From NCBI GenBank assembly GCA_902778125.1, contig CACYWH010000005.1:6101-70100 (forward strand): 64,000 nucleotides of DNA. The letters run 5' to 3'. The notes beneath the pieces were generated by a model. That model searched no databases, had not been told where the DNA came from, and saw nothing but the letters and a program-made list of their open reading frames with translations. The translations under genes and the position numbers were made by a program. This DNA is from an uncultured Erysipelotrichaceae bacterium (GTDB lineage: Bacteria; Bacillota_I; Bacilli_A; RF39; UBA660). Each line of letters begins with the position of its first letter. Position 1 is the stretch's first letter. Shown here in pieces: positions 5,800 through 54,498 of the stretch.

Positions 5800-5826
5800 G
5801 AAGATATTTATTATCTTCTTTTTTTA
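5798..5826 (+). terminator. Rho-independent terminator after sigA
   Basis: AAGAAGATA-tttat-TATCTTCTT hairpin followed by TTTTT. Confidence 0.65.
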
Positions 5827-5851
5827 TTGTTTTTATGTTAAAATTATTTCT

Positions 5852-7636: not shown

Positions 7637-7879
7637 TTATTTAAAGAAAGTAAGAGTATCATTATATGATGGATTACTTTCTTTTTTTATTATATTGCTC
7701 TCTAGTGCATCAGAAATTATATTGTTTTTTTTAAAGAAACTTTTTTCTCTTGTAACATAAGGTTTAACTTGTCTATATACAGGAATAGTTTTCTTAATTA
7801 CTCCTAGTGTTTTATTTGTATTACTTATAATATTTGATAAATTAATATTTTTTAAAATACTTAGTAAATTAATATTCAT
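7637..7879 (-). CDS. Small hypothetical protein (possible YqfQ/VrrA-like motif)
   Basis: AGGTGA RBS 5 nt before ATG 7879 (track start 7888 is a GTG inside the RBS). The KTLGVIKKTIPVYRQVKPYV stretch resembles the YqfQ-like core. The 3' part overlaps the lepA terminator hairpin. Confidence 0.4.
   Translation of the reverse strand: MNINLLSILKNINLSNIISNTNKTLGVIKKTIPVYRQVKPYVTREKSFFKKNNIISDALESNIIKKESNPSYNDTLTFFK
7643..7688 (+). terminator. Rho-independent terminator after lepA
   Basis: AAAGAAAGTAA ... TTACTTTCTTT 11-bp stem (with inner ATCAT/ATGAT pairing) followed by a T-run. Confidence 0.6.
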
Positions 7880-7953
7880 GACTATCACCTAATTTATTAT
7901 ATTAATATTTTTTATAAAAGTGAAAAAATATTCTTTTTATTTTTATTTTATTA

Positions 7954-7962
7954 TGTTATAAT
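7954..7962 (+). promoter_or_regulatory. Extended -10 promoter element upstream of pilC-like gene
   Basis: TGtTATAAT ~30 nt upstream of ATG 7992. No clear -35. Confidence 0.4.
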
Positions 7963-7991
7963 TTTAATGTATAGAATAAGGGGAAGAACTT

Positions 7992-9911: not shown

Positions 9912-9920
9912 GGGGGATTT

Positions 9921-10682
9921 ATGAAATTATATATATCATTATTTCTGTTTATACTAGGATCTGTGGTGGGTAGTTTTTTAGGATGTATGGGATATAGAAT
10001 TCCAAACAAAATAAAAACTACCTTTCCGCCTAGTTTTTGTTCGGAATGCAATAAAAAACTTAAATGGTACATGAATATTCCTATTGTTTCTTACATATTT
10101 TTAGGTGGCAAATGTGCCTATTGCAAGAAACCAATTGGATTTATATATTTTTTTACTGAAATATTATGTGCATTTTTGTTTGTATTAAATAATTTATTAT
10201 ATGGATTTAGTATTAATTTTTTCATAAGTACAATTTTATCTTGTGTACTTATTGTTACTATAGTAAGTGATTTTTTATATTATTATATATCAGATAGGGT
10301 ATTAATTATTTCAGTGATTGCAATAATAGTTACATTATATGCATTCACTGGTGCAAATGAAGTCTTAAAAGCTATAATTAATGGTGCTTTAATGTTTGGA
10401 ATTATGTATGCAATAAAATTGCTTGGTAATTTTATATTTAAAAGAGAATCTTTAGGTGATGGAGATATTAAGTTAATGGGTGTTATATCCCTTGCTATTG
10501 GTGTTATGAATAGCTTTTGTGCTTTGTTTTTAGCATCAGTAATTGGATTAATATATTCATTGTTTATATCAAAAATTAATAAAGATGGCATAATTCCATT
10601 TGGTCCATTTTTGCTAATAGGAGGAATGTTATCTATATATTTCTCAGAATTTTTTGCACATATTTTTCACGTTTTGATATAA
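9921..10682 (+). CDS. Prepilin peptidase (A24 family, PilD/ComC-like)
   Basis: Zinc-knuckle CSECNKKLKWYMNIPIVSYIFLGGKCAYCKK, polytopic membrane protein, catalytic-type GDGDIKLM motif, GGGGG RBS. Confidence 0.85.
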   Translation: MKLYISLFLFILGSVVGSFLGCMGYRIPNKIKTTFPPSFCSECNKKLKWYMNIPIVSYIFLGGKCAYCKKPIGFIYFFTEILCAFLFVLNNLLYGFSINFFISTILSCVLIVTIVSDFLYYYISDRVLIISVIAIIVTLYAFTGANEVLKAIINGALMFGIMYAIKLLGNFIFKRESLGDGDIKLMGVISLAIGVMNSFCALFLASVIGLIYSLFISKINKDGIIPFGPFLLIGGMLSIYFSEFFAHIFHVLI

Positions 10683-10686
10683 TCTA

Positions 10687-10715
10687 TTGACTATAAACAT
10701 GAAAAAAATTATAAT
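10687..10715 (+). promoter_or_regulatory. Consensus sigma-A promoter for the TasA-like genes
   Basis: TTGACT (10687-10692), 17-nt spacer, TATAAT (10710-10715). Followed by a 5'-UTR hairpin AGTTACGA-taatg-TCGTAACT (10731-10752) and a (TA)n run. Confidence 0.75.
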
Positions 10716-10778
10716 TATTATGTATGGTAGAGTTACGATAATGTCGTAACTATATATATATATATGAAAGGAGTTATC

Positions 10779-11381
10779 ATGGAAAAATCAAATAATTATG
10801 TTTTGTTTGGAGTATTAGCATTGGTAGTATCACTTGTTGCAGTATCTCTTGCATATGCTGGATTTACAGCAACATTAAATATTAGTGGTAGTGGTACAGT
10901 AGTAAATGCTAAGTGGGATGTTCATTTTGCTAATTTGGCATTAGATGAAAATACTGGTGTTACTGTTAATACTGCACCATCAATAAAAGGAACTGATACA
11001 ACAATTATTGAAGGCCTAGATGTATCATTTACAACACCAAATACTTCTGTAAGTTATACATTTGATGTAGAAAATAGAGGTACATTTGATGCAAAATTAA
11101 GTGGACTTACTATTGGTGCTCCATCTTGTAGTGGTGATCCTAAAGCAGCTACTGTTTGTGATTATATAACATATAAGTTATATGATACTACTACAAATAC
11201 TGAATTGACTGCTGCAGATAATGCAAAATTAGTTGCTGTATCAGGAACTAGACATTTTAAATTGGTTGTATCATATGGAAATATTCCATCTGAAGATTTA
11301 CCAACAAACAATGTTAATGTTTCTGGATTAACTGTAGCATTTAATTATACTCAAGATGGTTCAAATACAAATGGTGAATAA
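10779..11381 (+). CDS. Secreted TasA/camelysin-like fibre subunit candidate, paralogue 1
   Basis: AAAGGAG RBS before ATG 10779 (the track start at 10764 contains the RBS). Signal peptide ends SLAYA. Shows TPNTSVSYTFDVENRGTFDAK (compare TasA PGD...F.F.N.G motif), LTVAFNYTQDG C-terminus and one Cys pair. Confidence 0.65.
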   Translation: MEKSNNYVLFGVLALVVSLVAVSLAYAGFTATLNISGSGTVVNAKWDVHFANLALDENTGVTVNTAPSIKGTDTTIIEGLDVSFTTPNTSVSYTFDVENRGTFDAKLSGLTIGAPSCSGDPKAATVCDYITYKLYDTTTNTELTAADNAKLVAVSGTRHFKLVVSYGNIPSEDLPTNNVNVSGLTVAFNYTQDGSNTNGE

Positions 11382-11405
11382 TATAAAAAATTAAAGGAGA
11401 AAATC

Positions 11406-12008
11406 ATGGATAAAACAAGAAATTATTTAATATTTGGTGTATTATCTCTAGTTGTGTCACTTGTTGCAGTATCTCTTGCATATGCCGGGTTTACAGCAAC
11501 ATTAAATATAACTGGTACTGGAGCTGTTAAGGCTGCTAAATGGGATGTACACTTTGCAAATTTACAACCAGTAACTAAAACTGGTACTGCCGTTGAAAAT
11601 ACTGCTCCTACAGTAAATGGTACTACACTTGGAACATATTCTGTAACATTAAATGCTCCTGGTGATGCTGTAACATATACATTTGATGTAGAAAATAAAG
11701 GTAACTTTGCTGCAAAATGGACAGGGCTAACTATTGGTACACCTACGTGCAGTGGTGGAGATGCTAATGCAACTGGTGTATGTAATAATATAACTTATGA
11801 ACTTTATGAAGGTTCAACAAAGAAAACAAGTGCTGATAATAGTATTTTAGCTGCAAATACTGGTAAAAAAACTTACAAGTTAATATTAACATATAAAGCA
11901 TCAAATGATCCATCAGTATTACCTGCAAGTAAAGATGTTACTATTGGTAATTTAGGCGTTACATTCACATATACACAAGAGGGAGGATATGTAGCACCTA
12001 GTGCTTAA
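11406..12008 (+). CDS. Secreted TasA/camelysin-like fibre subunit candidate, paralogue 2
   Basis: Same architecture as 10779-11381. APGDAVTYTFDVENKGNFAAK, LGVTFTYTQEGG, one Cys pair. The N-terminal ~45 aa are almost identical to paralogue 1. Confidence 0.65.
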   Translation: MDKTRNYLIFGVLSLVVSLVAVSLAYAGFTATLNITGTGAVKAAKWDVHFANLQPVTKTGTAVENTAPTVNGTTLGTYSVTLNAPGDAVTYTFDVENKGNFAAKWTGLTIGTPTCSGGDANATGVCNNITYELYEGSTKKTSADNSILAANTGKKTYKLILTYKASNDPSVLPASKDVTIGNLGVTFTYTQEGGYVAPSA

Positions 12009-12034
12009 AATTTAAATAAGGAGAATGCGGAAAA

Positions 12035-13171
12035 TTGAAAAATAATGTTATTAAAATTTTATTACTGGAAATTGTCTGTATTCTTTTTACTGTACCTTGT
12101 ATAATTGGTGGATTAAGATATAATGAATATTTAATTTCATTTTTTATGCTTGGTATATTTGGTATATCTTATTTCCTTTTTGGATTTAAAAAGGATAAAT
12201 TATCTAATGCAAAAAAAACACTTATATTTGTTGCAGTAATTACAATAGCATTGGTATTTATAACATATGGGATAGGCTTTTTGACTGGATTTGCTCGTTC
12301 ACCATATAATAGAAATTTGATTGGTATATTATTAAATACTGGATCAGTTATATTACTTGTAATTGCAATTGAATTAGTTAGATATCAAATAATAAAAAAT
12401 GGTAATAAACTTACTGCTATTATAAGTGTAATTGCTTTAGTTTTAGTAGAAATAACATATAGTGTTAATTTATATAATTTTTATAATGAATTTGCATTAA
12501 TAGAGTTTATATGTATTGCTGTACTACCTAGTATATCAAAGAATATAATTATGACTTTATATGTAAGAAACTATGGATACAGAGTATCTTTAATATATTC
12601 TTTGATTTTAGCAATATATGAATATGTGGTACCAATTGTACCTAATTATGATAATTATTTAAGATCAATAATATTGATTATCATGCCAATTTTAAATATG
12701 CAATTTATTGATGCATATTTAAAAAGAAAAAAGAAGGAAGACGTAAGAAATAAAAATATAGGTCCAAAAATATTTGTTGTTATTTCAATTATATTTTTAT
12801 TATTCTTAATTGCTGTCTATAGTAACTTATTTAGATATTGGGTTGCAACAATTGCATCAGGAAGTATGAGCCCTACTATTGAGATTGGAGATATAGTAGT
12901 TGTTGATAAATATTATAGTGATAATCCAAAAGAATTAGCAGTTGGAGATATAATAGTTTTTAAAATTAAGGATACTTTATATACCCATAGAATAATAAAA
13001 TCAATTGAAAAGAATGGCAAATATTATTTCAGGACTAAAGGGGATTATAAGGACAATGCTGAAGATACTTGGATTGTTCTTAAAGAAGATATAGTTGGAA
13101 AAGTTAAATTTAAAATTAAATATTTAGGTTATCCTTCTATATGGTTACATAATTTGGTTGGAGGAGAGTAG
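12035..13171 (+). CDS. SipW-type (S26B) signal peptidase I fused to an N-terminal ~250-aa polytopic membrane domain
   Basis: C-terminal domain has ASGSMSPTIEIGDIVVVDK (Ser), LYTHRII (His) and KGDYKDNAEDTW (GDxNxxxD-like). The N-terminal domain has ~7 hydrophobic helices and no His. TTG start 10 nt after AAGGAGA. Confidence 0.7.
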   Translation: MKNNVIKILLLEIVCILFTVPCIIGGLRYNEYLISFFMLGIFGISYFLFGFKKDKLSNAKKTLIFVAVITIALVFITYGIGFLTGFARSPYNRNLIGILLNTGSVILLVIAIELVRYQIIKNGNKLTAIISVIALVLVEITYSVNLYNFYNEFALIEFICIAVLPSISKNIIMTLYVRNYGYRVSLIYSLILAIYEYVVPIVPNYDNYLRSIILIIMPILNMQFIDAYLKRKKKEDVRNKNIGPKIFVVISIIFLLFLIAVYSNLFRYWVATIASGSMSPTIEIGDIVVVDKYYSDNPKELAVGDIIVFKIKDTLYTHRIIKSIEKNGKYYFRTKGDYKDNAEDTWIVLKEDIVGKVKFKIKYLGYPSIWLHNLVGGE

Positions 13172-13179
13172 AAGGTTAT

Positions 13180-14301
13180 ATGGGTAATAGTGATGATATA
13201 ATTTATATTGATGAATCTAATAATAAGCAACAAAATACTCAAAAGAATAAAGTATCTTTTACTAAAAAAATACTGATTGTTCTTATTATTTTATCTATTA
13301 TAATAATACCATTGTCTTTTTCTTTTCTGATGAAATCTGTTAATCTAGATGGCCAAGAAAAAATAGTTGAATATATTGAAGTTGGAGATATAGATTATCA
13401 AGTACAATTACAAGATAATGATTATTATTCAGAAAAGTATTTAGAGAAAAATATGGAATATGTTGCTAACTTAATAGATACAATAAAGTCTAAATTTAAG
13501 TATGAATTACATTTAACAGATACTATGAACTTATCTTGGAAATATAAAATAACTGGAGAGTTATTAATTGCCAAGGATAGTGATAGTAGTCCTTTATATA
13601 CTCAAACCATTAATTTTGCTGAAAAATCCAATAATAATGTTACATCAACATCATTAAATTTAACTGAAGATTTGGATATTAAATATGATGAATATAATAG
13701 TTTAGTTAATAGATATAAAAGAGACTTTGGTTTAAGTGTAAATAGTAAATTAAACTTAGTTATGGATATTGAAGTAGAGGGTGTTACTCAACAAAGTTCT
13801 AATAAACTTAATTTAAAGAAATCTATGACAATGAGTGTTCCACTTTCAGAGCAAACTATTAAGATTAATATAGATTCAGATGAAATAAATAGTAATGGTG
13901 TTTTATTTGCAAAAAGCGGTATTGGCATTGAAAACAAATTATTATTCACAATATCATTATTACTTTTAGTCATATCAGTAGTTGTTCTTATTGGATGCAT
14001 ACTATATTATTCTAAATTTAAAAAGAACAATATTTACTATGTAATTCTTAATAAATATTTAAATGATTATGATAAGATTATTATAAATGTTTCTGCCGAA
14101 AGTAGTAATATTGATGAAAGTAAATATGATAATATTGTAAAAGTAGATAAATTTGAAGAATTGGTTGATGCTGCTGAAAATTTATCATTACCAATATTAT
14201 TTAATGAGATATTGCCTGGTGAAATTAGTTTGTTCTTCGTAATAAAGGATCAAACATTATATAAGTATGAACTTATAAGAAAAGTTTTAGAAACTAAGTA
14301 A
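13180..14301 (+). CDS. Bitopic membrane protein of the SipW/TasA-like locus (possibly DUF5305-like)
   Basis: TM near residues 31-52, ~190-aa extracytoplasmic region, second TM (LLFTISLLLLVISVVVLIGCILYY), ~100-aa C-terminal cytoplasmic domain. Start is 8 nt after the peptidase stop. Confidence 0.45.
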   Translation: MGNSDDIIYIDESNNKQQNTQKNKVSFTKKILIVLIILSIIIIPLSFSFLMKSVNLDGQEKIVEYIEVGDIDYQVQLQDNDYYSEKYLEKNMEYVANLIDTIKSKFKYELHLTDTMNLSWKYKITGELLIAKDSDSSPLYTQTINFAEKSNNNVTSTSLNLTEDLDIKYDEYNSLVNRYKRDFGLSVNSKLNLVMDIEVEGVTQQSSNKLNLKKSMTMSVPLSEQTIKINIDSDEINSNGVLFAKSGIGIENKLLFTISLLLLVISVVVLIGCILYYSKFKKNNIYYVILNKYLNDYDKIIINVSAESSNIDESKYDNIVKVDKFEELVDAAENLSLPILFNEILPGEISLFFVIKDQTLYKYELIRKVLETK

Positions 14302-14310
14302 AATAATTAG

Positions 14311-14335
14311 GAATGTCTTGAGACATTCTTTTTAT
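14311..14335 (+). terminator. Rho-independent terminator closing the pilC-to-membrane-protein gene string
   Basis: GAATGTC-ttga-GACATTC hairpin followed by TTTTTATTTT. Confidence 0.65.
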
Positions 14336-14376
14336 TTTGTTATAATTAATTAGTAATCAAAATAGATGGTGATGTT

Positions 14377-17307
14377 ATGTATATAAAAGAAATAAAATTA
14401 CAGGGATTTAAGAGCTTTGCAGATAAGATTGCTATTGAACTTGACCAATCATTTACAGGAATTGTAGGGCCTAATGGAAGTGGCAAAAGTAATATTGTTG
14501 ATGCGATAAAATGGGTTCTAGGTGAGCAAAGTATTAAAACTTTAAGAGGATCTAATAATATGATGGATGTTATATTTAGTGGTTCAGCATCAAGAGGAGC
14601 TTCTAATTTTGCATCTGTTTCAATATTATTTGATAATTCTGATAGAACTTTAAATATTGATTTTAATGAAGTTTCTATAAAAAGAGTGGTTTATAGAACT
14701 GGTGAAAATGAATACTATATTAACAATGAAAAATGTAGATTGAAAGACATTACTAATTTATTTTTAGATTCTATGTCTAGTAAGGAATCTTTTAATATTA
14801 TTCCTCAAAACAAAATCGATCAAATATTAAGTGAAAAGCCCGAAGATAGAAGAGTAATATTTGAAGATGCTGCTGGTGTACTAAAATATAAAAAAAGAAA
14901 AGAAGAAAGCTTAAATAAACTTTCTCATACTCATGAAAATATTGATAGAATAAATTTAATAATAAAAGAAAATTCTGAAAATTTAGAGCCACTTGAAGAA
15001 GAAGCAAAAAAAGCACGTGAATATAAAGATGCAATTAGAGAACTCGAAAGTGTTGAAATTGCTTTAATTGCAAAAGATATTACTGATTTTAGTTTGAAAT
15101 TAGAAGATAAGAAAAATAAAAAAGAGAAATTACAAGAGGAATTATTAAAACTTGATACAGTATCATCAAGTGATAATACTGAAGTAGAAAAATTGAAAGT
15201 TAAAATTATTAATAATGATGAAAAAATAAAAAATATTAGTTCCGAAATATTTAAAATTAATGAAAGTCTGCTTGAACTTAGCAATAAGAAAACACTTATG
15301 ACTGAAAGAAATAAGTATGATAAAACATCTGATAATGTTAAAAATAATATAATATTACTTAAAGAAAAAGAAGGTAATTTAAATAGTAGTATTTCTACTG
15401 TAAAATTAGATATTGAAAATTCTAAAAATAAAGAAATAGAGTTTAAGGAACAGTTAGAAAAACTAAATAATGAATATAGAAACATTAATATTGAATTTGA
15501 AAAAAACAATACTGATTTATCTAACGAAAGAAGTAAATTAAACAATACTAAGAATATGATTGATATATTGGATTCTAATGTTTCTAATATGAGTAAAGTT
15601 CCATATAGTGTAAGAAGTATAATAGATAGTCCAACACTAAGAGGAATACATAATATCTTAGGTAATTTGGTAGAAACAACAAAGGAATATGCAACAATGT
15701 TAGATGTTGCACTTGGAGCCTCTTATTGTAATATAGTTGTTGATGATGAATCTTGTGCTAAAGAAGCAATAGAATATTTGAAAAATCATGATAAAGGAAG
15801 AGCAACATTTTTCCCTTTGAATGTAATTAAACCAAAAAGTATAGAGCCAGAGGTGCTAAAAAGTATTTCAAATATTATTGGTTTTGTTGGAATTGCTAGT
15901 GATTTAGTAACATATAATCAAAAATACTATAATATTGTAATGAATCAACTTGGTAATATTATTGTTACTGATTCCATTAATTCTGCTATAGCAATAAGTA
16001 AAAAAATCAATCATAGATATAGAGTTATTTCTATTTCTGGCGAAATAATTCATGTAGGCGGAATCATTACTGGCGGTAGCATAAAATCAAATAATTCTTA
16101 TATATCAGATAAGTATGAACTTGAAAGATTAAAAATGTCTATTAATGTTATAAGTGATAACATTAAATCGTATGAAAATAAAGCTGCACAATATGAGAAT
16201 GATATCAATATTATTAAAGATAAAATATATAATATAAGTATTCAAAGCGTACAAAATAATGAATTACTAGGAAGCAAAGAGAAAGAATTAGAAAGTTTAT
16301 GTAGTGAACTTGATTTAGTTACTAATGAAATTAGTAATTTATCTTCAAATTCACTAGATAATGAGTTAAATAAAGTAATTGAAGATTATTATTTACATGA
16401 ACAAAGAAAACTTGAGTTAGAACATAATCTAGAAATTCAAAACAAGGAAAAACTTGAATTAAATAGTGAACTAAATAGTCTAGAATCATCTATAAGAAAA
16501 ATGAACAATGAATATAATTCTAAAAATAATGAAATCAATAGTTTAGAAATAGACATTACCAAATTAAATATATCATTAGATAATTTATTAAATAGATTAT
16601 CTGAAGATTATGGTTTAGGATATGAAAAGGCTAAGAAAGAGTATATTTTAGAAATAGATGAAGATATAGCAAGAGATAAAGTTTCTACCTTGAGAAGAAA
16701 AATTAAGTCTCTTGGAGAAGTTAATTTGGGATCAATTGATGAATATGAAAGGATATTTACAAGAGTAAGTTTCTTAAATAAGCAAAAAGAGGACTTAGAA
16801 AAGAGTGAAAATGACTTATTAAATATCATTAATGATATGGATGAAGTTATGAAAGATAGATTTGAAAAGTCGTTTAATGACATAAATTTAGAATTTAGTA
16901 AAGTATTTAGAGAATTATTTAAAGGTGGAAAAGCATATTTAGAACTAACTGATCCTGATAATATATTAGAAACTGGAATAAATATAGTTGCGGTACCTCC
17001 TGGAAAGAACGAGAAACCATTGAGTTTATTATCAGGTGGTGAAAGAACAATGACTGCGATTAGTTTATTATTCTCAATTATGAATTTAGAAAATGTACCA
17101 TTTGTTATTTTAGATGAAGTAGAAAGTGCATTAGATGAAAATAATGCTACTGTATTTGGTCAATATCTTGAAAATTATAAAAATAAAACTCAGTTATTAG
17201 TTATAACACATAAGAAAAAAACTATGGAATTTTTAGATAAATTATATGGTATTACAATGCAAGAAAGTGGAGTATCTAAAGTTGTTAGTGTTAAATTAGA
17301 TGATTAA
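14377..17307 (+). CDS. smc: Chromosome segregation protein SMC (short, 976 aa)
   Basis: Walker A GPNGSGKSN, long coiled coils, hinge region, LSGGERTM signature, Walker B VILDEVESALD. TGtTATAAT extended -10 at 14338-14346. Confidence 0.95.
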   Translation: MYIKEIKLQGFKSFADKIAIELDQSFTGIVGPNGSGKSNIVDAIKWVLGEQSIKTLRGSNNMMDVIFSGSASRGASNFASVSILFDNSDRTLNIDFNEVSIKRVVYRTGENEYYINNEKCRLKDITNLFLDSMSSKESFNIIPQNKIDQILSEKPEDRRVIFEDAAGVLKYKKRKEESLNKLSHTHENIDRINLIIKENSENLEPLEEEAKKAREYKDAIRELESVEIALIAKDITDFSLKLEDKKNKKEKLQEELLKLDTVSSSDNTEVEKLKVKIINNDEKIKNISSEIFKINESLLELSNKKTLMTERNKYDKTSDNVKNNIILLKEKEGNLNSSISTVKLDIENSKNKEIEFKEQLEKLNNEYRNINIEFEKNNTDLSNERSKLNNTKNMIDILDSNVSNMSKVPYSVRSIIDSPTLRGIHNILGNLVETTKEYATMLDVALGASYCNIVVDDESCAKEAIEYLKNHDKGRATFFPLNVIKPKSIEPEVLKSISNIIGFVGIASDLVTYNQKYYNIVMNQLGNIIVTDSINSAIAISKKINHRYRVISISGEIIHVGGIITGGSIKSNNSYISDKYELERLKMSINVISDNIKSYENKAAQYENDINIIKDKIYNISIQSVQNNELLGSKEKELESLCSELDLVTNEISNLSSNSLDNELNKVIEDYYLHEQRKLELEHNLEIQNKEKLELNSELNSLESSIRKMNNEYNSKNNEINSLEIDITKLNISLDNLLNRLSEDYGLGYEKAKKEYILEIDEDIARDKVSTLRRKIKSLGEVNLGSIDEYERIFTRVSFLNKQKEDLEKSENDLLNIINDMDEVMKDRFEKSFNDINLEFSKVFRELFKGGKAYLELTDPDNILETGINIVAVPPGKNEKPLSLLSGGERTMTAISLLFSIMNLENVPFVILDEVESALDENNATVFGQYLENYKNKTQLLVITHKKKTMEFLDKLYGITMQESGVSKVVSVKLDD

Positions 17308-47176: not shown

Positions 47177-47198
47177 GCTAACGTATGTTAGCTTTTTT
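47177..47198 (+). terminator. Rho-independent terminator after the tRNA pair
   Basis: GCTAAC-gtat-GTTAGC hairpin followed by TTTTTT. Confidence 0.65.
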
Positions 47199-47245
47199 AA
47201 TTGCCATTAAAAGAATTTAGTGATATATTAATCGTGGTGATTAAT

Positions 47246-47596
47246 ATGAATTCTAATGGAATTGATATTGTAAAAATTGAAAGATTTGATACTTTAAAAA
47301 ATAATTCTTCATTGATGAAATCAATATTTACTGAAAATGAAATTAAATATATTAATTCAAGAAATAACAATTCATCTACTATAGCAGGACTTTATGCTGC
47401 TAAAGAAGCATTTTTAAAAGCAATAAAAAAAGGCATTAATGATTATTCATTAAAAGATATTGAAATATCTCATGATAATAATAATGCTCCTTTTATAATT
47501 TTAAATAATTCGCTAAAAGATAAATATCCTAATTATTCAGTATCAATTTCACATGATGGAGAATATGCTATTGCAAGTGTGATATTATTTAATTAG
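47246..47596 (+). CDS. acpS: Holo-[acyl-carrier-protein] synthase (4'-phosphopantetheinyl transferase)
   Basis: GIDIVKIERF, AAKEAFLKA, SISHDGEYAIASV. Start moved to ATG 47246 because the track start at 47201 directly abuts the tRNA terminator (47177-47198). Confidence 0.85.
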   Translation: MNSNGIDIVKIERFDTLKNNSSLMKSIFTENEIKYINSRNNNSSTIAGLYAAKEAFLKAIKKGINDYSLKDIEISHDNNNAPFIILNNSLKDKYPNYSVSISHDGEYAIASVILFN

Positions 47597-48550
47597 AATT
47601 TTTTCCTTTTTTGTTTCTTTATTATTTTCTTTATATAATTCAACTGCCCTATCCCATTTTTGGTATTTAGGGTCATTTTTATGTGATACAACTAAATTTG
47701 ATTTAAGTAAATATTCGCCTACATAATAAGTAGAAATCTCTGCTCCTCTATGATTTAAGTGTTCTCCTTTATCTTTTGTATCATTTACCCAATCAATATC
47801 TAATAATGTATTTAAATCTAACCATTCAAGATTGTAATCTTTAGCAATTTTACTTACTATTTCATGTTTTTTCATAGACCACGCTTTTATAGATGGATTA
47901 GATATTAATATTAATTTTATATTATGTTCATCGCATAATTCAATTATTTTCTTTAAATAATACATATTTTCATCTTTAATAATTGTTTTATCATCTCGTC
48001 TATCTTTTCGATAACTTTCAATATCACTTTTTTTAGCCGGATTAAATTTAGCAATATATCTAAACCCTTTATTGTAATCAATCCAAGCATCACTTCCACC
48101 TAGTATTTTTTTCCAATTATTATGTAGCACATAAAATGGTAGCATATATTTTACTTTTTTAATGTCTTTAATTTTTCTTTTATTACTATCTGGATCTCTA
48201 AAAAACATATTAGTTTCTAAGAATACAACTTTTGGATTTTGGCTTTTAATTCCAAGAGTTAAATATTGATAAGATTCTTTCATTGTCTGACTAGATAATG
48301 AGCAATCATAACTAGTAAAACCATATTTATCATATATTAATGTTGGAGAAATAGAAGAATAAATTAAACTATCTCCTACCATAAGAGTATCTATTGTATT
48401 TTCTTCTTCATTTAGAAGTTCAAACATAGTACTATTGAAAAAACCATACTTAAATAGATTCTTTTTATTAGGAAATAATGGAATAGCTAATAATTCAACT
48501 AGTATTGCTAATATTATAAAAAATATAATTATTTTAAAATACCACTTCAT
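47585..48550 (-). CDS. DltD-like/SGNH-type membrane-anchored acyl-transfer protein of the dlt-like operon
   Basis: N-terminal TM, MVGDSLIYSS (GDS Ser motif), late DKGEHLNHRG (Asp/His). AGGAGG RBS 9 nt after the MBOAT stop. Confidence 0.6.
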   Translation of the reverse strand: MKWYFKIIIFFIILAILVELLAIPLFPNKKNLFKYGFFNSTMFELLNEEENTIDTLMVGDSLIYSSISPTLIYDKYGFTSYDCSLSSQTMKESYQYLTLGIKSQNPKVVFLETNMFFRDPDSNKRKIKDIKKVKYMLPFYVLHNNWKKILGGSDAWIDYNKGFRYIAKFNPAKKSDIESYRKDRRDDKTIIKDENMYYLKKIIELCDEHNIKLILISNPSIKAWSMKKHEIVSKIAKDYNLEWLDLNTLLDIDWVNDTKDKGEHLNHRGAEISTYYVGEYLLKSNLVVSHKNDPKYQKWDRAVELYKENNKETKKEKILIK

Positions 48551-48559
48551 TATAACCTC

Positions 48560-50140
48560 CTAAAAATCTGCATACATTGGATCAACTGGTACATAACCAT
48601 GTCCAAATGCGCCTAGTAAAAATATTGAAAAAATAAGTATGTAATATAGTGCCCATCTAACTGCAACTGGTTTTTTACTTATTTCATTTCTAACATCAAT
48701 ATTTTTTTCTTTAAATATACTTATTACAAATACAAATGTAATTCCTATTAATAACGCAATGTAATCATATATATCTAACCCAAGAGATGATATTTCACCC
48801 GTTCTAATAGACCAATCAGTAAATATTTTTTTAATCATTCCTAGTGCTATTTGCATAGTATCCGCTCTAAAGAATATTTCACCTATAAAAACCAAAAATG
48901 CCATCTTAATTGATTGAAATACTCTATATATGATATTTTCTCTATTAATATTTAATTTGTTACATATTTTAATTATTAATGGAGTAAAAATATTTCCAAG
49001 TAATATCATTAGAAAATGAAATAATCCAAATGCTAGAAAAGTATATCCTGCTCCATGCCATAGACCATTTAAAAACCAAACTACAAATAGCGCAATACTA
49101 CCACTAATTAATGGTCCAAAGTGATTACCAAGTTTTTTTCTAGCACTAATAGTTAATTTTTTCATCGGTTTAGATAATGAAATTGGATAGAATATATAAT
49201 CTCTGAACCAAGCTCCTAAACTAATATGCCATCTTGTCCAAAATTCTGATATATTTTTAGAAAAGAATGGCTGTCTAAAGTTTTCTTTAATATTAATTCC
49301 AAGTATTTCAGATGATCCAATTACTACATCCATTGTACCTGAAAATTCCATATATAGCATTACTGTATAAGCAATTGTACCTAGTAAAGATGAAAAACCA
49401 CTAAATTCTATATAGTTGTCAAATACAATTTTTACTAAGATATTTAGTCTATCTGCTATAACCATTTTTTTAAATAAGCCAAACATTATTCTCTGGTAAC
49501 CCCTACATAAGTTATCATAAGTAACATTATTACCTGCAAACATACTATCTTTTATATCAGCATATCTAGTGAAAGGCCCTTCAATTAATGTGGCAAAATA
49601 TGAAATATATAGTGCTACTTTTAAAGGATTCTTTTCTGCCTCTACTTTACCATTATATACATCTATAACATATGATAATGCAGTAAGCAACCAAAAAGAT
49701 ATACCTATAGGTGCTACAATTCTTATTATTTTAAAACTATAATCTATATGTAATAGTTTTAATAGTAAATTAGTATTAATTGAAAAGAAATTTAAATATT
49801 TATATGCAACTAAAAAAGAAACATTTATTAAAATATATATAATTAATAATAATTTCTTTTTAAATTTAAATTTATTCTTGATTTCCTTTTTCTCTTCACT
49901 ATTAGCATTATTTAATAATAATTCTTTCTTTTCTTCCAATTTATTTATAAATAATGCACTTATATATGTAGTTAATATTGTAATAAATAATATTACAATA
50001 AGTTTTTTACTTATATAAAAGAATAATGCAAAACTAACTAAAAGTAAGAAAATATATCTAAATTTCTTAGGAACTATACTATATATTATTACTACCGCAG
50101 GTATAACTAGAAACAAATAATATATACTAAGATATGACAT
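48560..50140 (-). CDS. MBOAT family membrane O-acyltransferase (DltB/AlgI-like)
   Basis: 526 aa, polytopic. TRWHISLGAWFRDYIFYPI and LNGLWHGAGYTF conserved His motifs. Confidence 0.85.
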   Translation of the reverse strand: MSYLSIYYLFLVIPAVVIIYSIVPKKFRYIFLLLVSFALFFYISKKLIVILFITILTTYISALFINKLEEKKELLLNNANSEEKKEIKNKFKFKKKLLLIIYILINVSFLVAYKYLNFFSINTNLLLKLLHIDYSFKIIRIVAPIGISFWLLTALSYVIDVYNGKVEAEKNPLKVALYISYFATLIEGPFTRYADIKDSMFAGNNVTYDNLCRGYQRIMFGLFKKMVIADRLNILVKIVFDNYIEFSGFSSLLGTIAYTVMLYMEFSGTMDVVIGSSEILGINIKENFRQPFFSKNISEFWTRWHISLGAWFRDYIFYPISLSKPMKKLTISARKKLGNHFGPLISGSIALFVVWFLNGLWHGAGYTFLAFGLFHFLMILLGNIFTPLIIKICNKLNINRENIIYRVFQSIKMAFLVFIGEIFFRADTMQIALGMIKKIFTDWSIRTGEISSLGLDIYDYIALLIGITFVFVISIFKEKNIDVRNEISKKPVAVRWALYYILIFSIFLLGAFGHGYVPVDPMYADF

Positions 50141-50143
50141 TTT

Positions 50144-50371
50144 TTATTCCTCTTTTAATCTTTCGATTAATTCCCACATTTTTTTAGCTGAATTAAAATT
50201 AGCAGGTATGATTTCAACTGTAGGTATTTCTACATCAAATTCATCTTCTATTTCTGAAACTAAAGATAATATAGTAAGTGAATCTAAATATCTACCATCT
50301 ATTAAATTGTCTACTGTTTCATAATCAACTTCTGGTTGTAACCCTTCTAAAATTTCAATTAATTTTTCCAT
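50144..50371 (-). CDS. Acyl/aminoacyl carrier protein (DltC-like)
   Basis: 75 aa, acidic, phosphopantetheine Ser in YLDSLTILSLV. Confidence 0.8.
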   Translation of the reverse strand: MEKLIEILEGLQPEVDYETVDNLIDGRYLDSLTILSLVSEIEDEFDVEIPTVEIIPANFNSAKKMWELIERLKEE

Positions 50372-50379
50372 AATACATC

Positions 50380-51546
50380 CTACTCCTTTACTTCATAATT
50401 TGGAAAATTTATTTCACTAGTTTTAATTGTATTTCTAACTAATTTATACTCTTTATTTTTATTATAAATTAATATTTTAGGTAAATCTCTACTTAAGAAT
50501 AATGATATACCCTCCGTAGAAGAATAAGCTCCAACATTTTTAAATACAAATATGTCTCCTACTTCTACTTTTCTTACACTAAGATTCTTTACTAAGACAT
50601 CATTAATTGTACAAAGTGATCCATATATATTGTAAATATCACTATCAGCTTTTCTTTTAGGTAATACTTCTAAATGAGGTATTTTCATAGCAAGAGTGCT
50701 GCCATAATATACCAAATGATTTATTCCACCATCCACTATTGCAAAATTGCCATTTTGATTTGATTTTAAATCAACTACTGTAGTTAGGTAATTACCACAT
50801 GATGCTGCAATACTTCTACCAATTTCCAAAAGAACCTTTTTATTTTTAATTCTACTTAGTGCTTCATTTACTTCTTTAAAGAACTCATCTTCATCAAATT
50901 CATCGCCTTCATAATAGAAAATTGGAAGACCTGGTCCATATTCAATTTCTTCAAATGTAATATTATATTCTTTTTCCATTTCATTACTAAAAAGTATTAA
51001 ATAATCTATTTCCTTATTTATTCTCTTTATAGAATGTTTCTGTGTTCCGGAAAAATATTCTATACCTTTAATTACTAAATTTTTATTATTTGCTATTATA
51101 TGTTTAAAATCTTCTTCGCTTACACCAAATTGATTGCCAGATGTAAGTCGTATCAATACATTTAATTTTTTATTATATTTGATAGATAATTCATCAAGAA
51201 TTTCAAAGTGTTCAATAGATTCAATTGTATATCTATTAATGTCGTAATTCTTAACTAAAGATTCAATAAATTCATAATTTTTATATACACCAGATATTAC
51301 CATTTTATTATGATTAATATTAAGATTGTTACATATTTCAAATTCACCTGGAGAACATATTTCAAATTTATCAATCATTGATTCTACTTCTTTTGCAATA
51401 AATGTATTTGCTTTAACTGCATAAACAAGACTTATATCATTACTGAAAGATTTTTTTAAATGATCAATTCGCTTGTCTAATTCATTAATATCATAAACAT
51501 ATATTGGAGTCCCAAATTTTTTAGTTATATAATCATAATCTATCAT
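50380..51546 (-). CDS. Fold-type III PLP-dependent decarboxylase family protein (Orn/DAP/Arg decarboxylase-like)
   Basis: TPIYVYD...LVYAVKANT (PLP Lys), LEIGRSIAA (EPGR-like), IVDGGINHLVYYG, CTINDVL, VGAYSS. ATGA overlap with the adenylase gene. The usual HxGS motif is not evident (reads YFSGTQ). Confidence 0.7.
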   Translation of the reverse strand: MIDYDYITKKFGTPIYVYDINELDKRIDHLKKSFSNDISLVYAVKANTFIAKEVESMIDKFEICSPGEFEICNNLNINHNKMVISGVYKNYEFIESLVKNYDINRYTIESIEHFEILDELSIKYNKKLNVLIRLTSGNQFGVSEEDFKHIIANNKNLVIKGIEYFSGTQKHSIKRINKEIDYLILFSNEMEKEYNITFEEIEYGPGLPIFYYEGDEFDEDEFFKEVNEALSRIKNKKVLLEIGRSIAASCGNYLTTVVDLKSNQNGNFAIVDGGINHLVYYGSTLAMKIPHLEVLPKRKADSDIYNIYGSLCTINDVLVKNLSVRKVEVGDIFVFKNVGAYSSTEGISLFLSRDLPKILIYNKNKEYKLVRNTIKTSEINFPNYEVKE

Positions 51547-53060
51547 TTTGAACTCTCCTTATATAATTGCATTAGTTTTTTTCTATCTATCTTACCATTT
51601 TTAGTCATTGGAAACTCTTCCATTTGTATTAATAAAGTTGGAATCATAAATGCAGGTAATACTTCTTTCAATTTAGCATGTAAATCTTTTTTACTGATAT
51701 CTCCTATATAAAAACCATATAGTTTTGATTTTTCAGAATCAAATATTGTACAACTTCTAATTACTTCATCATATTTCATAAGAGCTTTATCAATTTCTTC
51801 AAGTTCTATTCTATGCCCCAAGTATTTTATTTGAAAATCTTTTCTACCATTAAACATAAGTTCATTATTTTCATTATAATAAGCAAGATCTCCAGTTCTA
51901 TATATTAATTCAATATAATTATTAATATTAGGATTTTGAATAAAATGAGAATCAGTTTGTTCGTGATTATTAAAATATCCAAGAGCAAGTGATGTGCCAC
52001 TTACGCATAATTCCCCTACTTTATTTGGAACTGTTATTTCTTTATTTTCATCATCAAGTAAAAATACTCTTTCATTAGGAAATGCTTTTCCTATTGGAAT
52101 TTTATCATCATAATCTCTATTTCTATCAATTATATAATAAGTACAATTACAAGTTATTTCTGTAGGACCATAAATATTTACAAACATTGTATTTGGTAAA
52201 TGTTCCATCCAAAGTTTTAAATGCTTAATAGGCATTACTTCACCACTAAATAGTATCTTATTTACTGTATCAGGCACTTTATAATCAAGCCCATGAAATG
52301 TAGTTATTAAACATAATGCTGAAACAGCCCAAGTCATAGTAGTAATTTTATTATCACATAAATAATCGAGTAACATAACTGGATTAGAAAAGTATTTTTT
52401 AGGTACTATTACTAGTGTTGCTCCTACTCTTAAAGCACTATAAATATCTTTAACAGATACATCAAAATCAAAAGGTGCTTGATTAGCAATTATATCTTCT
52501 TCTTTAAAGTTAAACATAGTTGTATATTTATCAATAAAGTCTATTACTGATCTATGAGAAATTACAACTCCTTTAGGAACACCGGTTGAACCCGATGTAA
52601 AATTAACATATAAGGGGTCATAATTAATATGCTTATTTAATGCATTATTTATACTTTCTTCATTATATTTATTTTCTTTTAAATCTTTAATATTATATAC
52701 ATTTAAATCACTAAAATATTTTTTAGCAGCATCCATATTTTCATCATTCGTTATAACATTCTTAGATTTAATTACATCCTTTATTTGTAATATTCTATTT
52801 TCTGGCAATTCTGGATTAATTAACGTGTAATAACATCCTGCATAGACGCTTCCAAAGAAAGAAATAAGAGTATCTATTCCTTTATCCATAAAAATTATTA
52901 TTGGTTCATTAAAAGTATTTCTTTCAGAAAAAAAACTTCCTACATTCAAACTATATTTATTTAAATCATTATATGTAATTTTTTCATCTTCACATATAAC
53001 TGCAATTTTATCACTATATTTTAACACTGAATTTTTTAAATAATCAATAACACTATACAT
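51543..53060 (-). CDS. Amino acid adenylation enzyme / carrier-protein ligase (DltA-like)
   Basis: FTSGSTGVPKG, APFDFDVSV, YGPTE, YRTGDLA, GRKDFQIKYLGHRIELEEI, NGKIDRKKL. 505 aa stand-alone A domain. Confidence 0.85.
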   Translation of the reverse strand: MYSVIDYLKNSVLKYSDKIAVICEDEKITYNDLNKYSLNVGSFFSERNTFNEPIIIFMDKGIDTLISFFGSVYAGCYYTLINPELPENRILQIKDVIKSKNVITNDENMDAAKKYFSDLNVYNIKDLKENKYNEESINNALNKHINYDPLYVNFTSGSTGVPKGVVISHRSVIDFIDKYTTMFNFKEEDIIANQAPFDFDVSVKDIYSALRVGATLVIVPKKYFSNPVMLLDYLCDNKITTMTWAVSALCLITTFHGLDYKVPDTVNKILFSGEVMPIKHLKLWMEHLPNTMFVNIYGPTEITCNCTYYIIDRNRDYDDKIPIGKAFPNERVFLLDDENKEITVPNKVGELCVSGTSLALGYFNNHEQTDSHFIQNPNINNYIELIYRTGDLAYYNENNELMFNGRKDFQIKYLGHRIELEEIDKALMKYDEVIRSCTIFDSEKSKLYGFYIGDISKKDLHAKLKEVLPAFMIPTLLIQMEEFPMTKNGKIDRKKLMQLYKESSK

Positions 53061-53103
53061 ACTTCATATCCTCATTGTTTCATTTATCTATCACAATTTT
53101 ATC

Positions 53104-53140
53104 ACAAAAAAATAAAAGTAACAACATTATTGTTACTTTT
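53104..53140 (-). terminator. Rho-independent terminator separating the 447-aa gene from the dlt-like operon
   Basis: Minus strand: AAAGTAACA-(7 nt)-TGTTACTTT hairpin followed by TATTTTTTT. Confidence 0.6.
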
Positions 53141-53154
53141 TGTATATTGAGTTT

Positions 53155-54498
53155 TTATTTTAATACGCGAATATAATTTTTTTCATTTTTTATGAAGTTT
53201 CTAAAAATCCAATAGTCTTCTCTATCTGAGTAATCATCAAGTAATTTTAAAACTTCAGAATCTTTTGTAAGTGAATAATAACTCTTAATTATAGCTAATT
53301 TTACAAGTCTATCATTATAATCATATAATCCATCAAATATATCCACTATTAGTGATTTAACTAATATTCTAAACCATTCTAAATCATAATATATGTTCTC
53401 TGAATTTATGTATCCATTATAAGCATTATTATATGTGTTTTCAAATCCTTCTTCAGTTAATAATTTATAAGAGGAATTATCAAGTAAATATAATAGCTTT
53501 AATTTGATTGATTTTAATCCATGAACATCACTAAATCCAAATAATCTATCTACCTCATTTAATTTTTTTATTAAGTCTAGGTAAAATAATAGCGTTGTAT
53601 TATCCCTTGGAGTATATACAAACCCCTTATTTTTAAATGAATCTTTTCTAAATTCCTCCATATTATATCTTTGATTTTCTTCTTCAGTAATACTTGAATC
53701 ATAATTACCATATTTTATAAGTAATTCATTTATATCATCGTATAATCTATAATCTTCAATACCAGAATCGATTTGGTTAAATATTGCAAACATGTATGAA
53801 CTATTTAACACTTCATCTAAATAATTAAATGAATCAGGGAATAATTTATCGGGTTCAATCGTCCTGTCTATAGGGTAATAATTTATTAGATAATTTGATG
53901 GTAACATTTGTGTAGCATCAGAAAGAGCATCCTCTAGATAATCTGTATCTTTATGCATTAATATAGAATAAAATTCATCTCTTTTTTGTAATAATAATCT
54001 AATATTCTTTTTCCTTTTATTTTTAAATTCATCATCACAAATATCATCATAAGCAAATGATAAATAATATTCTGCTAATTTATTCTCTATTTCTTCTACT
54101 TTCATAAGTTTATCTGATATCTTAGTAGCGCCAATTAACGTTTTAAGTTCAATATCATTTCTAACAAAATCAATTATTGATGATAAAAAAGGATAATTAA
54201 ATGTTTCTAGTAAATAATATAATTCATCTTTAGAAACATTATCATTTAATATAATATATCCATCTTTAACTTGTAGTATATCATCATATTTTTTATTAAG
54301 TTTTGATAATGAATCCATATCATTCAACATAGCAAAATGATATTCGTTCGAAGCATAATTTGCTCTTTCTAGAAATATAGGAATAAATCTTTCAATATTA
54401 TTTATACTAATTTTACCTTTTCCATTAAATCTTTTACAAATTAATAATGTAAGTAATATTATAAAATCATATCTAATTATGTATTTTTCTTTTTCCAT
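53155..54498 (-). CDS. Hypothetical 447-aa protein, no recognisable domain
   Basis: GGGGGAG RBS. Soluble, Asp/Tyr/Asn-rich. Divergent from murC. Confidence 0.5.
   Translation of the reverse strand: MEKEKYIIRYDFIILLTLLICKRFNGKGKISINNIERFIPIFLERANYASNEYHFAMLNDMDSLSKLNKKYDDILQVKDGYIILNDNVSKDELYYLLETFNYPFLSSIIDFVRNDIELKTLIGATKISDKLMKVEEIENKLAEYYLSFAYDDICDDEFKNKRKKNIRLLLQKRDEFYSILMHKDTDYLEDALSDATQMLPSNYLINYYPIDRTIEPDKLFPDSFNYLDEVLNSSYMFAIFNQIDSGIEDYRLYDDINELLIKYGNYDSSITEEENQRYNMEEFRKDSFKNKGFVYTPRDNTTLLFYLDLIKKLNEVDRLFGFSDVHGLKSIKLKLLYLLDNSSYKLLTEEGFENTYNNAYNGYINSENIYYDLEWFRILVKSLIVDIFDGLYDYNDRLVKLAIIKSYYSLTKDSEVLKLLDDYSDREDYWIFRNFIKNEKNYIRVLK

Follow-up and report, generated by a model that had tools for sequence, protein, structure and literature searches.

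The operon and its gene products

We analysed a stretch of 64,000 nucleotides (hereafter the window; G+C content approximately 24%) from an uncultured Erysipelotrichaceae bacterium (contig CACYWH010000005.1, positions 6,101 to 70,100 of the forward strand), in which a preliminary description, made from the letters alone, had pointed out a dlt-like operon with an embedded pyridoxal phosphate (PLP)-dependent decarboxylase. Its five co-directional minus-strand genes were all recovered in the open reading frame (ORF) listing with the positions and spacing first given for them. In the direction of transcription they encode an adenylation (A) enzyme (51543-53060, 505 aa, Pfam AMP-binding), a PLP enzyme (50380-51546, 388 aa, identified through Pfam), a carrier protein (50144-50371, 75 aa, PP-binding match), a membrane-bound O-acyltransferase (MBOAT; 48560-50140, 526 aa, Pfam MBOAT) and an SGNH-fold protein (47585-48550, 321 aa, recognised with AlphaFold2 (AF2) and Foldseek). 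The genes are tightly packed, the first two sharing a 4-nt ATGA overlap and the following three gaps measuring 8, 3 and 9 nt. We favour, with moderate confidence, the reading that they encode a carrier-dependent MBOAT-SGNH pathway, which would acylate a cell-envelope polymer with a decarboxylated amino acid.

The PLP enzyme matched both Orn_Arg_deC_N and Orn_DAP_Arg_deC in Pfam (and, weakly, Ala_racemase_N), in line with its first assignment to the Orn/DAP/Arg decarboxylase family. Its PLP-binding lysine (K45) occurs in at least 90% of subfamily members and without exception in the closer relatives. The decarboxylase C-terminal domain is present, together with the conserved cysteine of the CE(S/T)GD motif of diaminopimelate (DAP) decarboxylase (LysA), which we take to be the proton donor. 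By scanning 1.84 billion cluster representatives we delineated a subfamily of at least 269 clusters (50% identity) at E <=1e-30, the best 150 of which all scored at least 194 bits. It is typified by the conserved motifs RLxSGNQFG, G[IL][HQE][YF][FY]xGTQ, EYGPG and E[LM]GR, and further by DGGIxxLxYYGQ, GSLCTxxD, GAYSxTEG and LFLSR. In the window enzyme we located EYFSGTQ (residues 163-169), EYGPG (202-206), EIGR (241-244), DGGINHLVYYG (272-282) and LCTIND (311-316). The substitution of HxGS by G-I-E-Y-F-S-G-T-Q and of GGG by EYGPG, which the preliminary description had singled out as atypical, is real and belongs to the whole family rather than to the window; BtrK deviates similarly at HxGS (GIHVYTGTQ), the aromatic-for-histidine change being common to both.

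Against the lysA equivalog model TIGR01048 the enzyme scored 179.7 bits, short of the cut-off of 297.9. The arginine of the LysA DLIRP motif is replaced by Y280 (invariant in 98 subfamily sequences), and the glutamate of CE(S/T)GD by T313, a position at which BtrK has threonine as well. From LysA-lysine complex structures, we take these two LysA residues to bind the distal end of DAP. When a profile of 98 subfamily members was compared with solved structures, BtrK came first (249 bits), followed by SbnH (6knh; 219 bits), Aquifex LysA (208 bits) and Escherichia coli LysA (93 bits). Foldseek returned a concordant order for the AF2 model (predicted local distance difference test score, pLDDT, 88.3): BtrK 7ru7 (E 3.2e-32), BtrK 2j66, SbnH and then LysA. 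The sub-cut-off score, the replaced distal-site residues and the separate subfamily thus argue that the protein is not LysA, and by these comparisons we assign it to a distinct BtrK-like, carrier-associated subfamily and not to the housekeeping enzyme. BtrK, SbnH, FslC/FigC, MccE and D-ODC form one clade with DAP decarboxylase (DAPDC), and most members of this DAPDC/BtrK clade decarboxylate an amino-acid moiety that is attached to something larger (PMC7857480).

One subfamily protein, P0179 (1046 aa), carries the decarboxylase domain at residues 16-394, followed by C-terminal Ig-like/Rib and transglutaminase-core domains, and represents either a real fusion or a gene-calling artefact; its transglutaminase core presumably also belongs to clan CL0125. 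The closthioamide transacylase CtaG has been assigned to this CA protease clan (CL0125; PMC7183216).

Adenylation enzyme and its specificity code

The first enzyme of the operon is, as proposed, a stand-alone member of the adenylating superfamily (Pfam AMP-binding, 215 bits), and it fell below the cut-offs of both the DltA equivalog TIGR01734 (301.5 bits, cut-off 559.85) and the DltA subfamily NF003417 (313.8 bits, cut-off 476). Its best matches among PDB sequences were the A domains of non-ribosomal peptide synthetases (NRPS) and DltA, at approximately 200 bits (DltA and PheA, ~200-216 bits), while HitB and CmiS6, A enzymes related to VinN and FlvN, reached 158-171 bits.

We extracted the specificity code by aligning the family to a fragment of GrsA-PheA, a reference that yields the canonical Phe code DAWTIAAICK at the published positions. 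A second reference, a fragment of Bacillus subtilis DltA, was checked against PDB entries 3e7w (3 mismatches, none at code positions) and 3dhv. The window enzyme reads DVKTLSICNK (D200, V201, K204, T243, L270, S272, I296, C304, N305 and K490), and approximately 160 orthologues read D-V-K-[T/I/V]-[L/I/M]-S-[L/I/V]-C-N-K, in which D, V, K, S, C, N and K are fixed across both of the gene orders described below. Since the code is near-invariant in spite of this rearrangement, the substrate is probably the same at all loci. Comparison with the D-alanine code of DltA, a check that had been suggested at the outset, revealed differences at 6 of the 10 positions (DVKTLSICNK vs DLMT[M/L]CTVAK). Among them, the DltA cysteine (C269 in Bacillus cereus), which we understand to select the D-Ala enantiomer, is replaced by serine, so that the pocket does not conform to that of a D-Ala-activating enzyme.

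The pocket would be small, resembling those of DltA or of serine-activating domains, with the addition of a lysine on its floor (code position 239), which is invariant. Asp235, which normally binds the alpha-amino group during activation of the alpha-carboxyl, is retained, as in ordinary alpha-amino-acid activators. An invariant lysine in a small pocket points to a small acidic substrate, by analogy with FlvN and VinN most likely aspartate activated through its side-chain carboxyl and less likely glutamate; Asp235 would suit the beta-amino-acid binding mode of aspartate better than a gamma-linked glutamate. Because Lys 239 suits a substrate that still bears a second carboxylate when bound, it also argues that loading precedes decarboxylation. 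The preliminary description allowed for either order of the two reactions and overlooked this argument.

Lysine, as the product of DAP decarboxylation, was considered as the loaded residue and found unlikely. The window code does somewhat resemble a Lys code, apart from a reversed charge at position 239. Against lysine speak the small size of the pocket (L270, S272, I296) and Lys 239, which would repel a cationic side chain (an argument against ornithine as well); in addition, the PLP enzyme is devoid of the distal-site arginine and glutamate of LysA.

Carrier protein, MBOAT with a fused shuttle motif and SGNH partner

The identification of the 75-aa protein as a carrier with its serine in a DSL motif was borne out by a PP-binding match above the cut-off (22.9 bits, cut-off 20.8; phosphopantetheine serine S31). 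The match to the DltC equivalog NF003464 was weak (26.9 bits, cut-off 68), and other acyl carrier protein (ACP) models likewise remained below their cut-offs. Of the five proteins, it is the carrier that varies least among orthologues, with identities of up to 87%.

The MBOAT also stayed below its Dlt equivalog (DltB, TIGR04091; 125.2 bits, cut-off 375), and among solved structures its core aligned only with DltB (8jem, 6bug). Both of the histidine motifs noticed earlier, RWHISL (residues 303-308, H305) and LWHG (360-363, H362), line up with those of DltB, and the protein thus has the histidines expected of the family. It is approximately 100 residues longer than DltB and has two extra C-terminal hydrophobic helices (residues ~453-479 and 491-519, by hydropathy), after which it ends in the hexapeptide PMYADF (48563-48580, minus strand) with a putative acyl-accepting tyrosine, Y523. 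The C-terminus reads P[IMVL]Y[AV]xF in 78 of 79 orthologues, with the tyrosine and the terminal phenylalanine kept, and the MBOATs of the subfamily with rearranged gene order mostly end in FLYANF, having phenylalanine at the first position where the window clade has proline.

This ending recalls the C-terminal FXYXXF 'acyl shuttle' of PatA, which auto-acetylates the invariant tyrosine of the motif and passes the acyl group on to the SGNH protein PatB (PMC12148441). In the Dlt system the motif sits on the microprotein DltX, and in other MBOAT-SGNH pathways it is fused to the MBOAT; the latter 'lack a similar carrier protein' and use acyl-CoA (PMC12148441). We read PMYADF as a fused shuttle motif of the FXYXXF type. 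No small ORF ending in xYxxF (i.e. no DltX-like gene) was found in or next to the operon, where the MBOAT alone ends in this way; with the tyrosine motif carried by the MBOAT itself, no DltX microprotein would be needed. Hence, the operon's own carrier, the fused motif and the missing DltX-like ORF characterise the system, on the level of sequence, as a hybrid that is carrier-dependent like Dlt and has its shuttle fused as in PatA. The preliminary description had captured the dlt-like scheme but missed the fused tyrosine shuttle.

The fifth protein had no match in Pfam (to E 10), in NCBIfam or among PDB sequences (to E 10), and the DltD family was not matched. With 24 homologues recovered from a large protein collection, we obtained an alignment in which S61 (of the GDS motif), H264 and N266 do not vary, while D60 and D260 are kept in at least 90% of the sequences. 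The AF2 model built on it (mean pLDDT 89.4) was matched by Foldseek to SGNH/GDSL hydrolases with probability 1.00; TesA (1ivn) was the best hit (E 3.5e-7, TMt 0.68) and PatB (8tlb) was also among the matches (E 1e-4). A single N-terminal hydrophobic segment (residues 1-29, by hydropathy) is a predicted membrane anchor. The protein therefore combines a predicted SGNH fold, a putative S61/D260/H264 triad and a predicted extracytoplasmic topology; the early reading as a membrane-anchored, SGNH-like protein with GDS and D/H motifs holds, outside the DltD family as judged by sequence. On the strength of the model, we read it as a functional counterpart of DltD or PatB.

At some loci 2-4 tandem SGNH paralogues follow the MBOAT gene (L038, 11008-12920; L049, 11025-15014; L050, 7776-9709), and four are present in Clostridiales bacterium NK3B98. 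Together with the fast evolution of the SGNH protein, these paralogues suggest several or changing acceptors, or diversifying selection.

Distribution and synteny

Two look-ups at 61-65% identity retrieved the same five genes with a convergent acpS, set between unrelated flanking genes. A scan of one genome per GTDB species, with a 16-sequence alignment as query, uncovered at least 579 relatives. The best 80 of these were all labelled Firmicutes, with the exception of a few metagenome-assembled genomes (MAGs) labelled Muribaculaceae, and comprised uncultured Bacilli, 'Tenericutes' MAGs, Lachnospiraceae, Oscillospiraceae, Agathobaculum, Flintibacter, Pseudoflavonifractor, Acetobacterium and Catenibacillus. 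As far as the contigs extend, all 85 genome-derived loci show the order A-PLP-carrier-MBOAT-SGNH, even where identity of the PLP enzyme falls to 43%. In the closest relatives, identity to the window proteins decreased from the carrier through the A enzyme, the PLP enzyme and the MBOAT to the SGNH protein. The convergent acpS was confined to the nearest clade of uncultured Bacilli. The operon content had been correctly recognised in the preliminary description, but its spread across gut Firmicutes had gone unnoticed.

A further scan, of metagenomes, was seeded with the most distant members of the PLP subfamily and returned 80 loci, 74 of which hold all five components or as many of them as the contig spans. 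Most of these 74 are human-gut contigs with a second gene order (SGNH-MBOAT-A-PLP-carrier) and the same A-domain code. The other 6 loci (L086-L091) are environmental; in the five that were long enough for examination, the PLP gene lies approximately 3 kb upstream of a different A enzyme, with the code DYYP[T/S]TMCKK, and in L086 (the only one annotated) it is immediately followed by a gene for an 85-aa carrier protein.

Wherever the contig reaches, across approximately 160 loci, the PLP gene adjoins a carrier gene, and this pair is the most persistent unit of the cluster. As had been proposed for checking, the PLP gene is accompanied by the A, carrier, MBOAT and SGNH genes in every sufficiently long related locus, also in the rearranged order. 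The clustering of the same five genes in approximately 160 independent loci is far beyond chance, and a linkage that survives rearrangement of the gene order argues for one pathway.

Two side observations were made at these loci. In approximately 20 of the 85 genome-derived ones, the A gene is immediately preceded, on its own strand, by genes for an OmpR-family response regulator (~234 aa) and a histidine kinase (~530 aa) (e.g., L084, 4200-6450; L051, 4013-6401; L045, 4133-6368). This suggests that the operon may be signal-controlled in such species, and recalls the two-component control of dlt. The L086 cluster (4582-14582) encodes two radical-SAM proteins, PALP, methyltransferase and NAD-synthase-like proteins and an A enzyme with the code DYYPTTMCKK, and L087, L088, L090 and L091 have a similar gene spacing; from its gene content, it looks like an uncharacterised thiotemplated natural-product pathway.

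Surroundings of the operon in the window

Downstream, acpS (holo-ACP synthase; 47201-47596, plus strand; ACPS 64 bits, TIGR00516 80 bits) converges on the operon and overlaps the SGNH gene by 12 nt, as initially described. The listed ORF begins with TTG at 47201; since the Pfam match starts only at residue 20 and orthologues measure 118-125 aa, the true start is probably the ATG at 47246.

Upstream, a minus-strand ORF of 447 aa (53155-54498) directly precedes the operon; it had no Pfam or NCBIfam match, and no homologue of it was found beside the operon in 85 related loci. The terminator that was thought to bound the operon downstream of this ORF (53104-53140, minus strand) does exist as an AT-rich hairpin with a T-run, read directly from the sequence, but it has only 2 G-C pairs by hand count and drew no call in a consensus terminator scan. 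It is possibly a weak intrinsic terminator. A promoter-like site (TTGTTA, 17 nt, TAAAAT, with a TG extension; 53096-53124, minus strand) lies upstream of the A gene as a consensus match only, such matches being no commoner in this region than in shuffled sequence. The sole terminator-like call between 46800 and 54700 was a hairpin GCTAAC...GTTAGC with a T-run (47177-47192, plus strand) between a minus-strand deacetylase gene and acpS, with no plus-strand gene upstream to terminate. Within the 64-kb window we detected no further paralogues of the five genes, no lysA and no dlt genes.

A proposed route from amino acid to envelope ester

From the gene content, the fold and family assignments, the motif conservation and the synteny established here, we infer a sequence of chemical steps with its substrate and acceptor. 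AcpS would turn the carrier into its holo form, and the A enzyme would load an amino acid (aspartate, less likely glutamate) on it as a thioester. Homology and gene linkage suggest that the BtrK-like enzyme then removes the free alpha-carboxyl of the tethered residue, giving a beta-alanyl- or gamma-aminobutyryl-S-carrier. On the cytoplasmic side, the MBOAT would receive the acyl group from the carrier and then transfer it to Tyr523 of its own PxYAxF motif at the outer face, from where the SGNH protein could accept it on Ser61 and pass it to a hydroxyl of teichoic acid, peptidoglycan or another wall polysaccharide. The outcome would be an amine-bearing ester on an envelope polymer, other than D-alanine. 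We reason that such a pathway has to start from a dicarboxylic amino acid, as decarboxylation of an ordinary one before loading leaves no carboxyl to adenylate. Loading, decarboxylation on the carrier and export through MBOAT and SGNH had been envisaged in the preliminary description, and the placement of the PLP enzyme, the synteny and the A-domain code lend support to this scheme, its chemistry and acceptor being deduced from these features.

Decarboxylation of a carrier-bound amino acid by a PLP enzyme is biochemically established in four systems. The analogy with butirosin, drawn early on, is sound: BtrJ, BtrI and BtrK convert glutamate to gamma-aminobutyrate (GABA) on a carrier (PMC7857480). 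To it can be added CtaD, CtaE and CtaF of a Clostridium-type Firmicute, which turn aspartate into beta-alanine and in which CtaF is inactive on the free substrate (PMC7183216). In the VinN/L/O system (vicenistatin) thioester formation is required before decarboxylation, while FlvN/L/O (fluvirucin) leads from aspartate to beta-alanyl-ACP; the loaders VinN and FlvN are adenylation enzymes.

Like Dlt, the operon encodes an A enzyme that stands alone, a small carrier of its own, an MBOAT whose catalytic histidines are those of DltB and a membrane-anchored SGNH-fold transferase; the overall logic proposed here, which leads from a cytoplasmic aminoacyl thioester through the MBOAT, a tyrosine ester and the SGNH serine to the polymer, would be shared as well. 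It differs in the PLP decarboxylase gene that separates the genes of the A enzyme and the carrier, and in its A code, with lysine at position 239 and serine for the DltA cysteine. Moreover, it has no DltX and bears the shuttle hexapeptide on two extra MBOAT helices, its fifth protein lies outside the DltD family, and all proteins score below the Dlt equivalog cut-offs. With PatA/PatB (and, by extension, the AlgI- and WssH-type O-acetylation pairs; PMC12148441) it has in common the C-terminal tyrosine hexapeptide on two additional transmembrane helices and a separate anchored SGNH partner; those pairs use acetyl-CoA without a carrier, whereas the window system encodes its own A enzyme, carrier and decarboxylase, and its donor is presumably an aminoacyl-S-carrier.

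The likeness to BtrI/J/K and CtaD/E/F lies in a DAPDC-clade PLP decarboxylase working with a small carrier (in those systems on a substrate tethered through its side-chain carboxyl), BtrK being the closest solved structure. They have an ATP-grasp loader and an antibiotic as product, in contrast to the NRPS/DltA-type A enzyme and the envelope-acylation pair found here. VinN/L/O and FlvN/L/O combine an adenylation enzyme, a stand-alone ACP and a PLP decarboxylase as the window operon does, yet they are actinomycete polyketide starter-unit pathways with more distant A enzymes and no MBOAT or SGNH gene. Finally, the A and PLP enzymes match the exosortase-A-associated pair TIGR03098/TIGR03099 at 190 and 149 bits, both far below the cut-offs (592 and 478, respectively). 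We take this pair to be an uncharacterised, proteobacterial pairing of a ligase with a PLP decarboxylase at surface-polysaccharide loci, and we know of no MBOAT-SGNH pair in that system.

Several points weigh against the proposed route. When single sequences are compared, the PLP enzyme stands no nearer to BtrK (91 bits) than to Aquifex LysA (96 bits); a moderate lead for BtrK emerges only when the family profile or Foldseek is used, and the TM-scores to LysA are equally high. The side-chain loaders BtrJ and CtaD belong to the ATP-grasp enzymes, and here the loader is an A domain of the NRPS/DltA type. Aspartate was assigned from the resemblance of the code, and the retained Asp235 normally goes with activation of the alpha-carboxyl; an aspartate or glutamate linked in that manner would leave no alpha-carboxyl for an alpha-decarboxylase. 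Furthermore, family members are known to us from sequences and predicted structures alone, and the acceptor could be a lipid or a small molecule.

Alternative explanations

One alternative, an ordinary D-alanylation operon with a housekeeping lysA inserted, would account for the best NCBIfam names (DltA, DltB, DltC and lysA) and for a gene order, A-(x)-C-B-D, that resembles dlt. We rejected it as scarcely credible: the scores are far from the cut-offs (DltA 301/560, DltB 125/375, DltC 27/68, lysA 180/298), the A code differs at 6 of 10 positions including the change of the enantioselectivity cysteine to serine, DltX is absent and the shuttle fused to the MBOAT, the fifth protein is not of the DltD family, and the PLP gene is fixed in the cluster across approximately 160 loci. 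More serious, though still unlikely, is the possibility that the PLP enzyme acts on a free amino acid (meso-DAP to L-lysine, aspartate to beta-alanine or glutamate to GABA) and that only the product is loaded, so that the carrier would never bear a dicarboxylic residue. The protein is, after all, a decarboxylase of the Orn/DAP/Arg type over its full length, both the PLP lysine and the putative proton-donor cysteine being present, it scores as highly to LysA as to BtrK in single-sequence comparison, and the A domain retains Asp235 like ordinary alpha-amino-acid activators. Lys 239, however, is incompatible with cationic lysine or ornithine and unnecessary for beta-alanine or GABA; A domains that activate beta-alanine have, as we understand it, a shifted VDxV... 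code, which is absent from the window enzyme. The distal-site arginine and glutamate of LysA are lost, and both profile and fold searches prefer BtrK and SbnH, enzymes of tethered substrates. The PLP gene adjoins a carrier gene even in L086, in a cluster of unrelated type, and CtaF, the nearest biochemical analogue from a Firmicute, refuses the free substrate.

A different chemistry on the carrier is also conceivable, in which the PLP enzyme epimerises the tethered aminoacyl group or beta-decarboxylates an alpha-linked aspartyl thioester to an alanyl-S-carrier. Its fold is common to alanine racemase (hence the weak Ala_racemase_N match), and an alpha-linked aspartate would fit both the retained Asp235 and Lys 239. 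Given the decarboxylase C-terminal domain and the conserved putative proton-donor cysteine, we regard this as very improbable; to our knowledge, only alpha-decarboxylases have been characterised in the DAPDC/BtrK/SbnH/FslC clade, and we know of no precedent for beta-decarboxylation on this fold. The last alternative concerns the destination of the acyl group, namely that the operon makes a secreted or membrane-bound small molecule (for instance an aminoacyl lipid or a natural product of thiotemplate chemistry), in which case the acceptor of the MBOAT-SGNH pair would be a lipid or metabolite. Elsewhere, cassettes of A enzyme, carrier and PLP decarboxylase have been described from natural-product pathways; the PLP enzyme also has a sister group in a radical-SAM-rich cluster, and gene content is compatible with more than one kind of acceptor. 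We nevertheless doubt this explanation and give it little weight. The operon is a compact set of five genes and includes none for condensation, polyketide synthase or tailoring enzymes; it is flanked by housekeeping genes, which differ from one genome to another, and it has been kept in small-genome gut Bacilli, beside their acpS. In addition, every characterised bacterial MBOAT-SGNH pair with a tyrosine shuttle acylates an extracytoplasmic envelope polymer (PMC12148441).

Novelty and significance

Acylation of an envelope polymer with an amino acid decarboxylated on its carrier remains our preferred reading of the operon, and full-text literature searches combining its defining terms turned up no description of either the operon or the route. 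Each class of component is known; what appears to be new is their combination, i.e. a thiotemplated decarboxylation that would feed an MBOAT-SGNH exporter which depends on a carrier and has the shuttle motif fused to it. How common this combination is in gut Firmicutes seems likewise to have escaped notice so far. The genome mining in the closthioamide paper would have missed the operon because it was anchored on ATP-grasp loaders (PMC7183216). Signals annotated as 'btrK' (EC 4.1.1.95) have been reported in gut metagenome surveys (PMC10182090); as butirosin producers are not gut residents, these signals probably come from the PLP subfamily described here.

Dlt-mediated D-alanylation is the textbook means by which Gram-positive bacteria tune their surface charge, their resistance to cationic peptides and their interaction with the host. 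We tentatively extend our reading to the family as a whole, and consider it possible, with rather less assurance than for the operon itself, that many gut Firmicutes esterify a wall polymer with beta-alanyl or gamma-aminobutyryl groups, in place of or besides D-alanyl ones, through a second carrier-dependent MBOAT-SGNH pathway in which a BtrK-like decarboxylase generates the acyl group on the carrier.

If true, this would add a second carrier-dependent pathway to a class whose members other than Dlt are said to lack a carrier (PMC12148441). With its different acyl group, built-in decarboxylation and fused tyrosine shuttle, it would link the Dlt and PatA architectures, and it would mean that primary envelope biogenesis has taken over a piece of the 'thiotemplate' chemistry of natural products. 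The operon is present in several cultivable hosts, namely Acetobacterium carbinolicum DSM 2925 (L070), Catenibacillus scindens DSM 106146 (L068), Flintibacter porci (L062) and Agathobaculum spp., and four of its proteins are soluble or easily assayed. The module occurs in at least 579 loci of species-representative genomes and is abundant in human-gut metagenome contigs; thus, a novel wall ester of such common commensals could affect immune recognition, phage adsorption and resistance to antimicrobial peptides.

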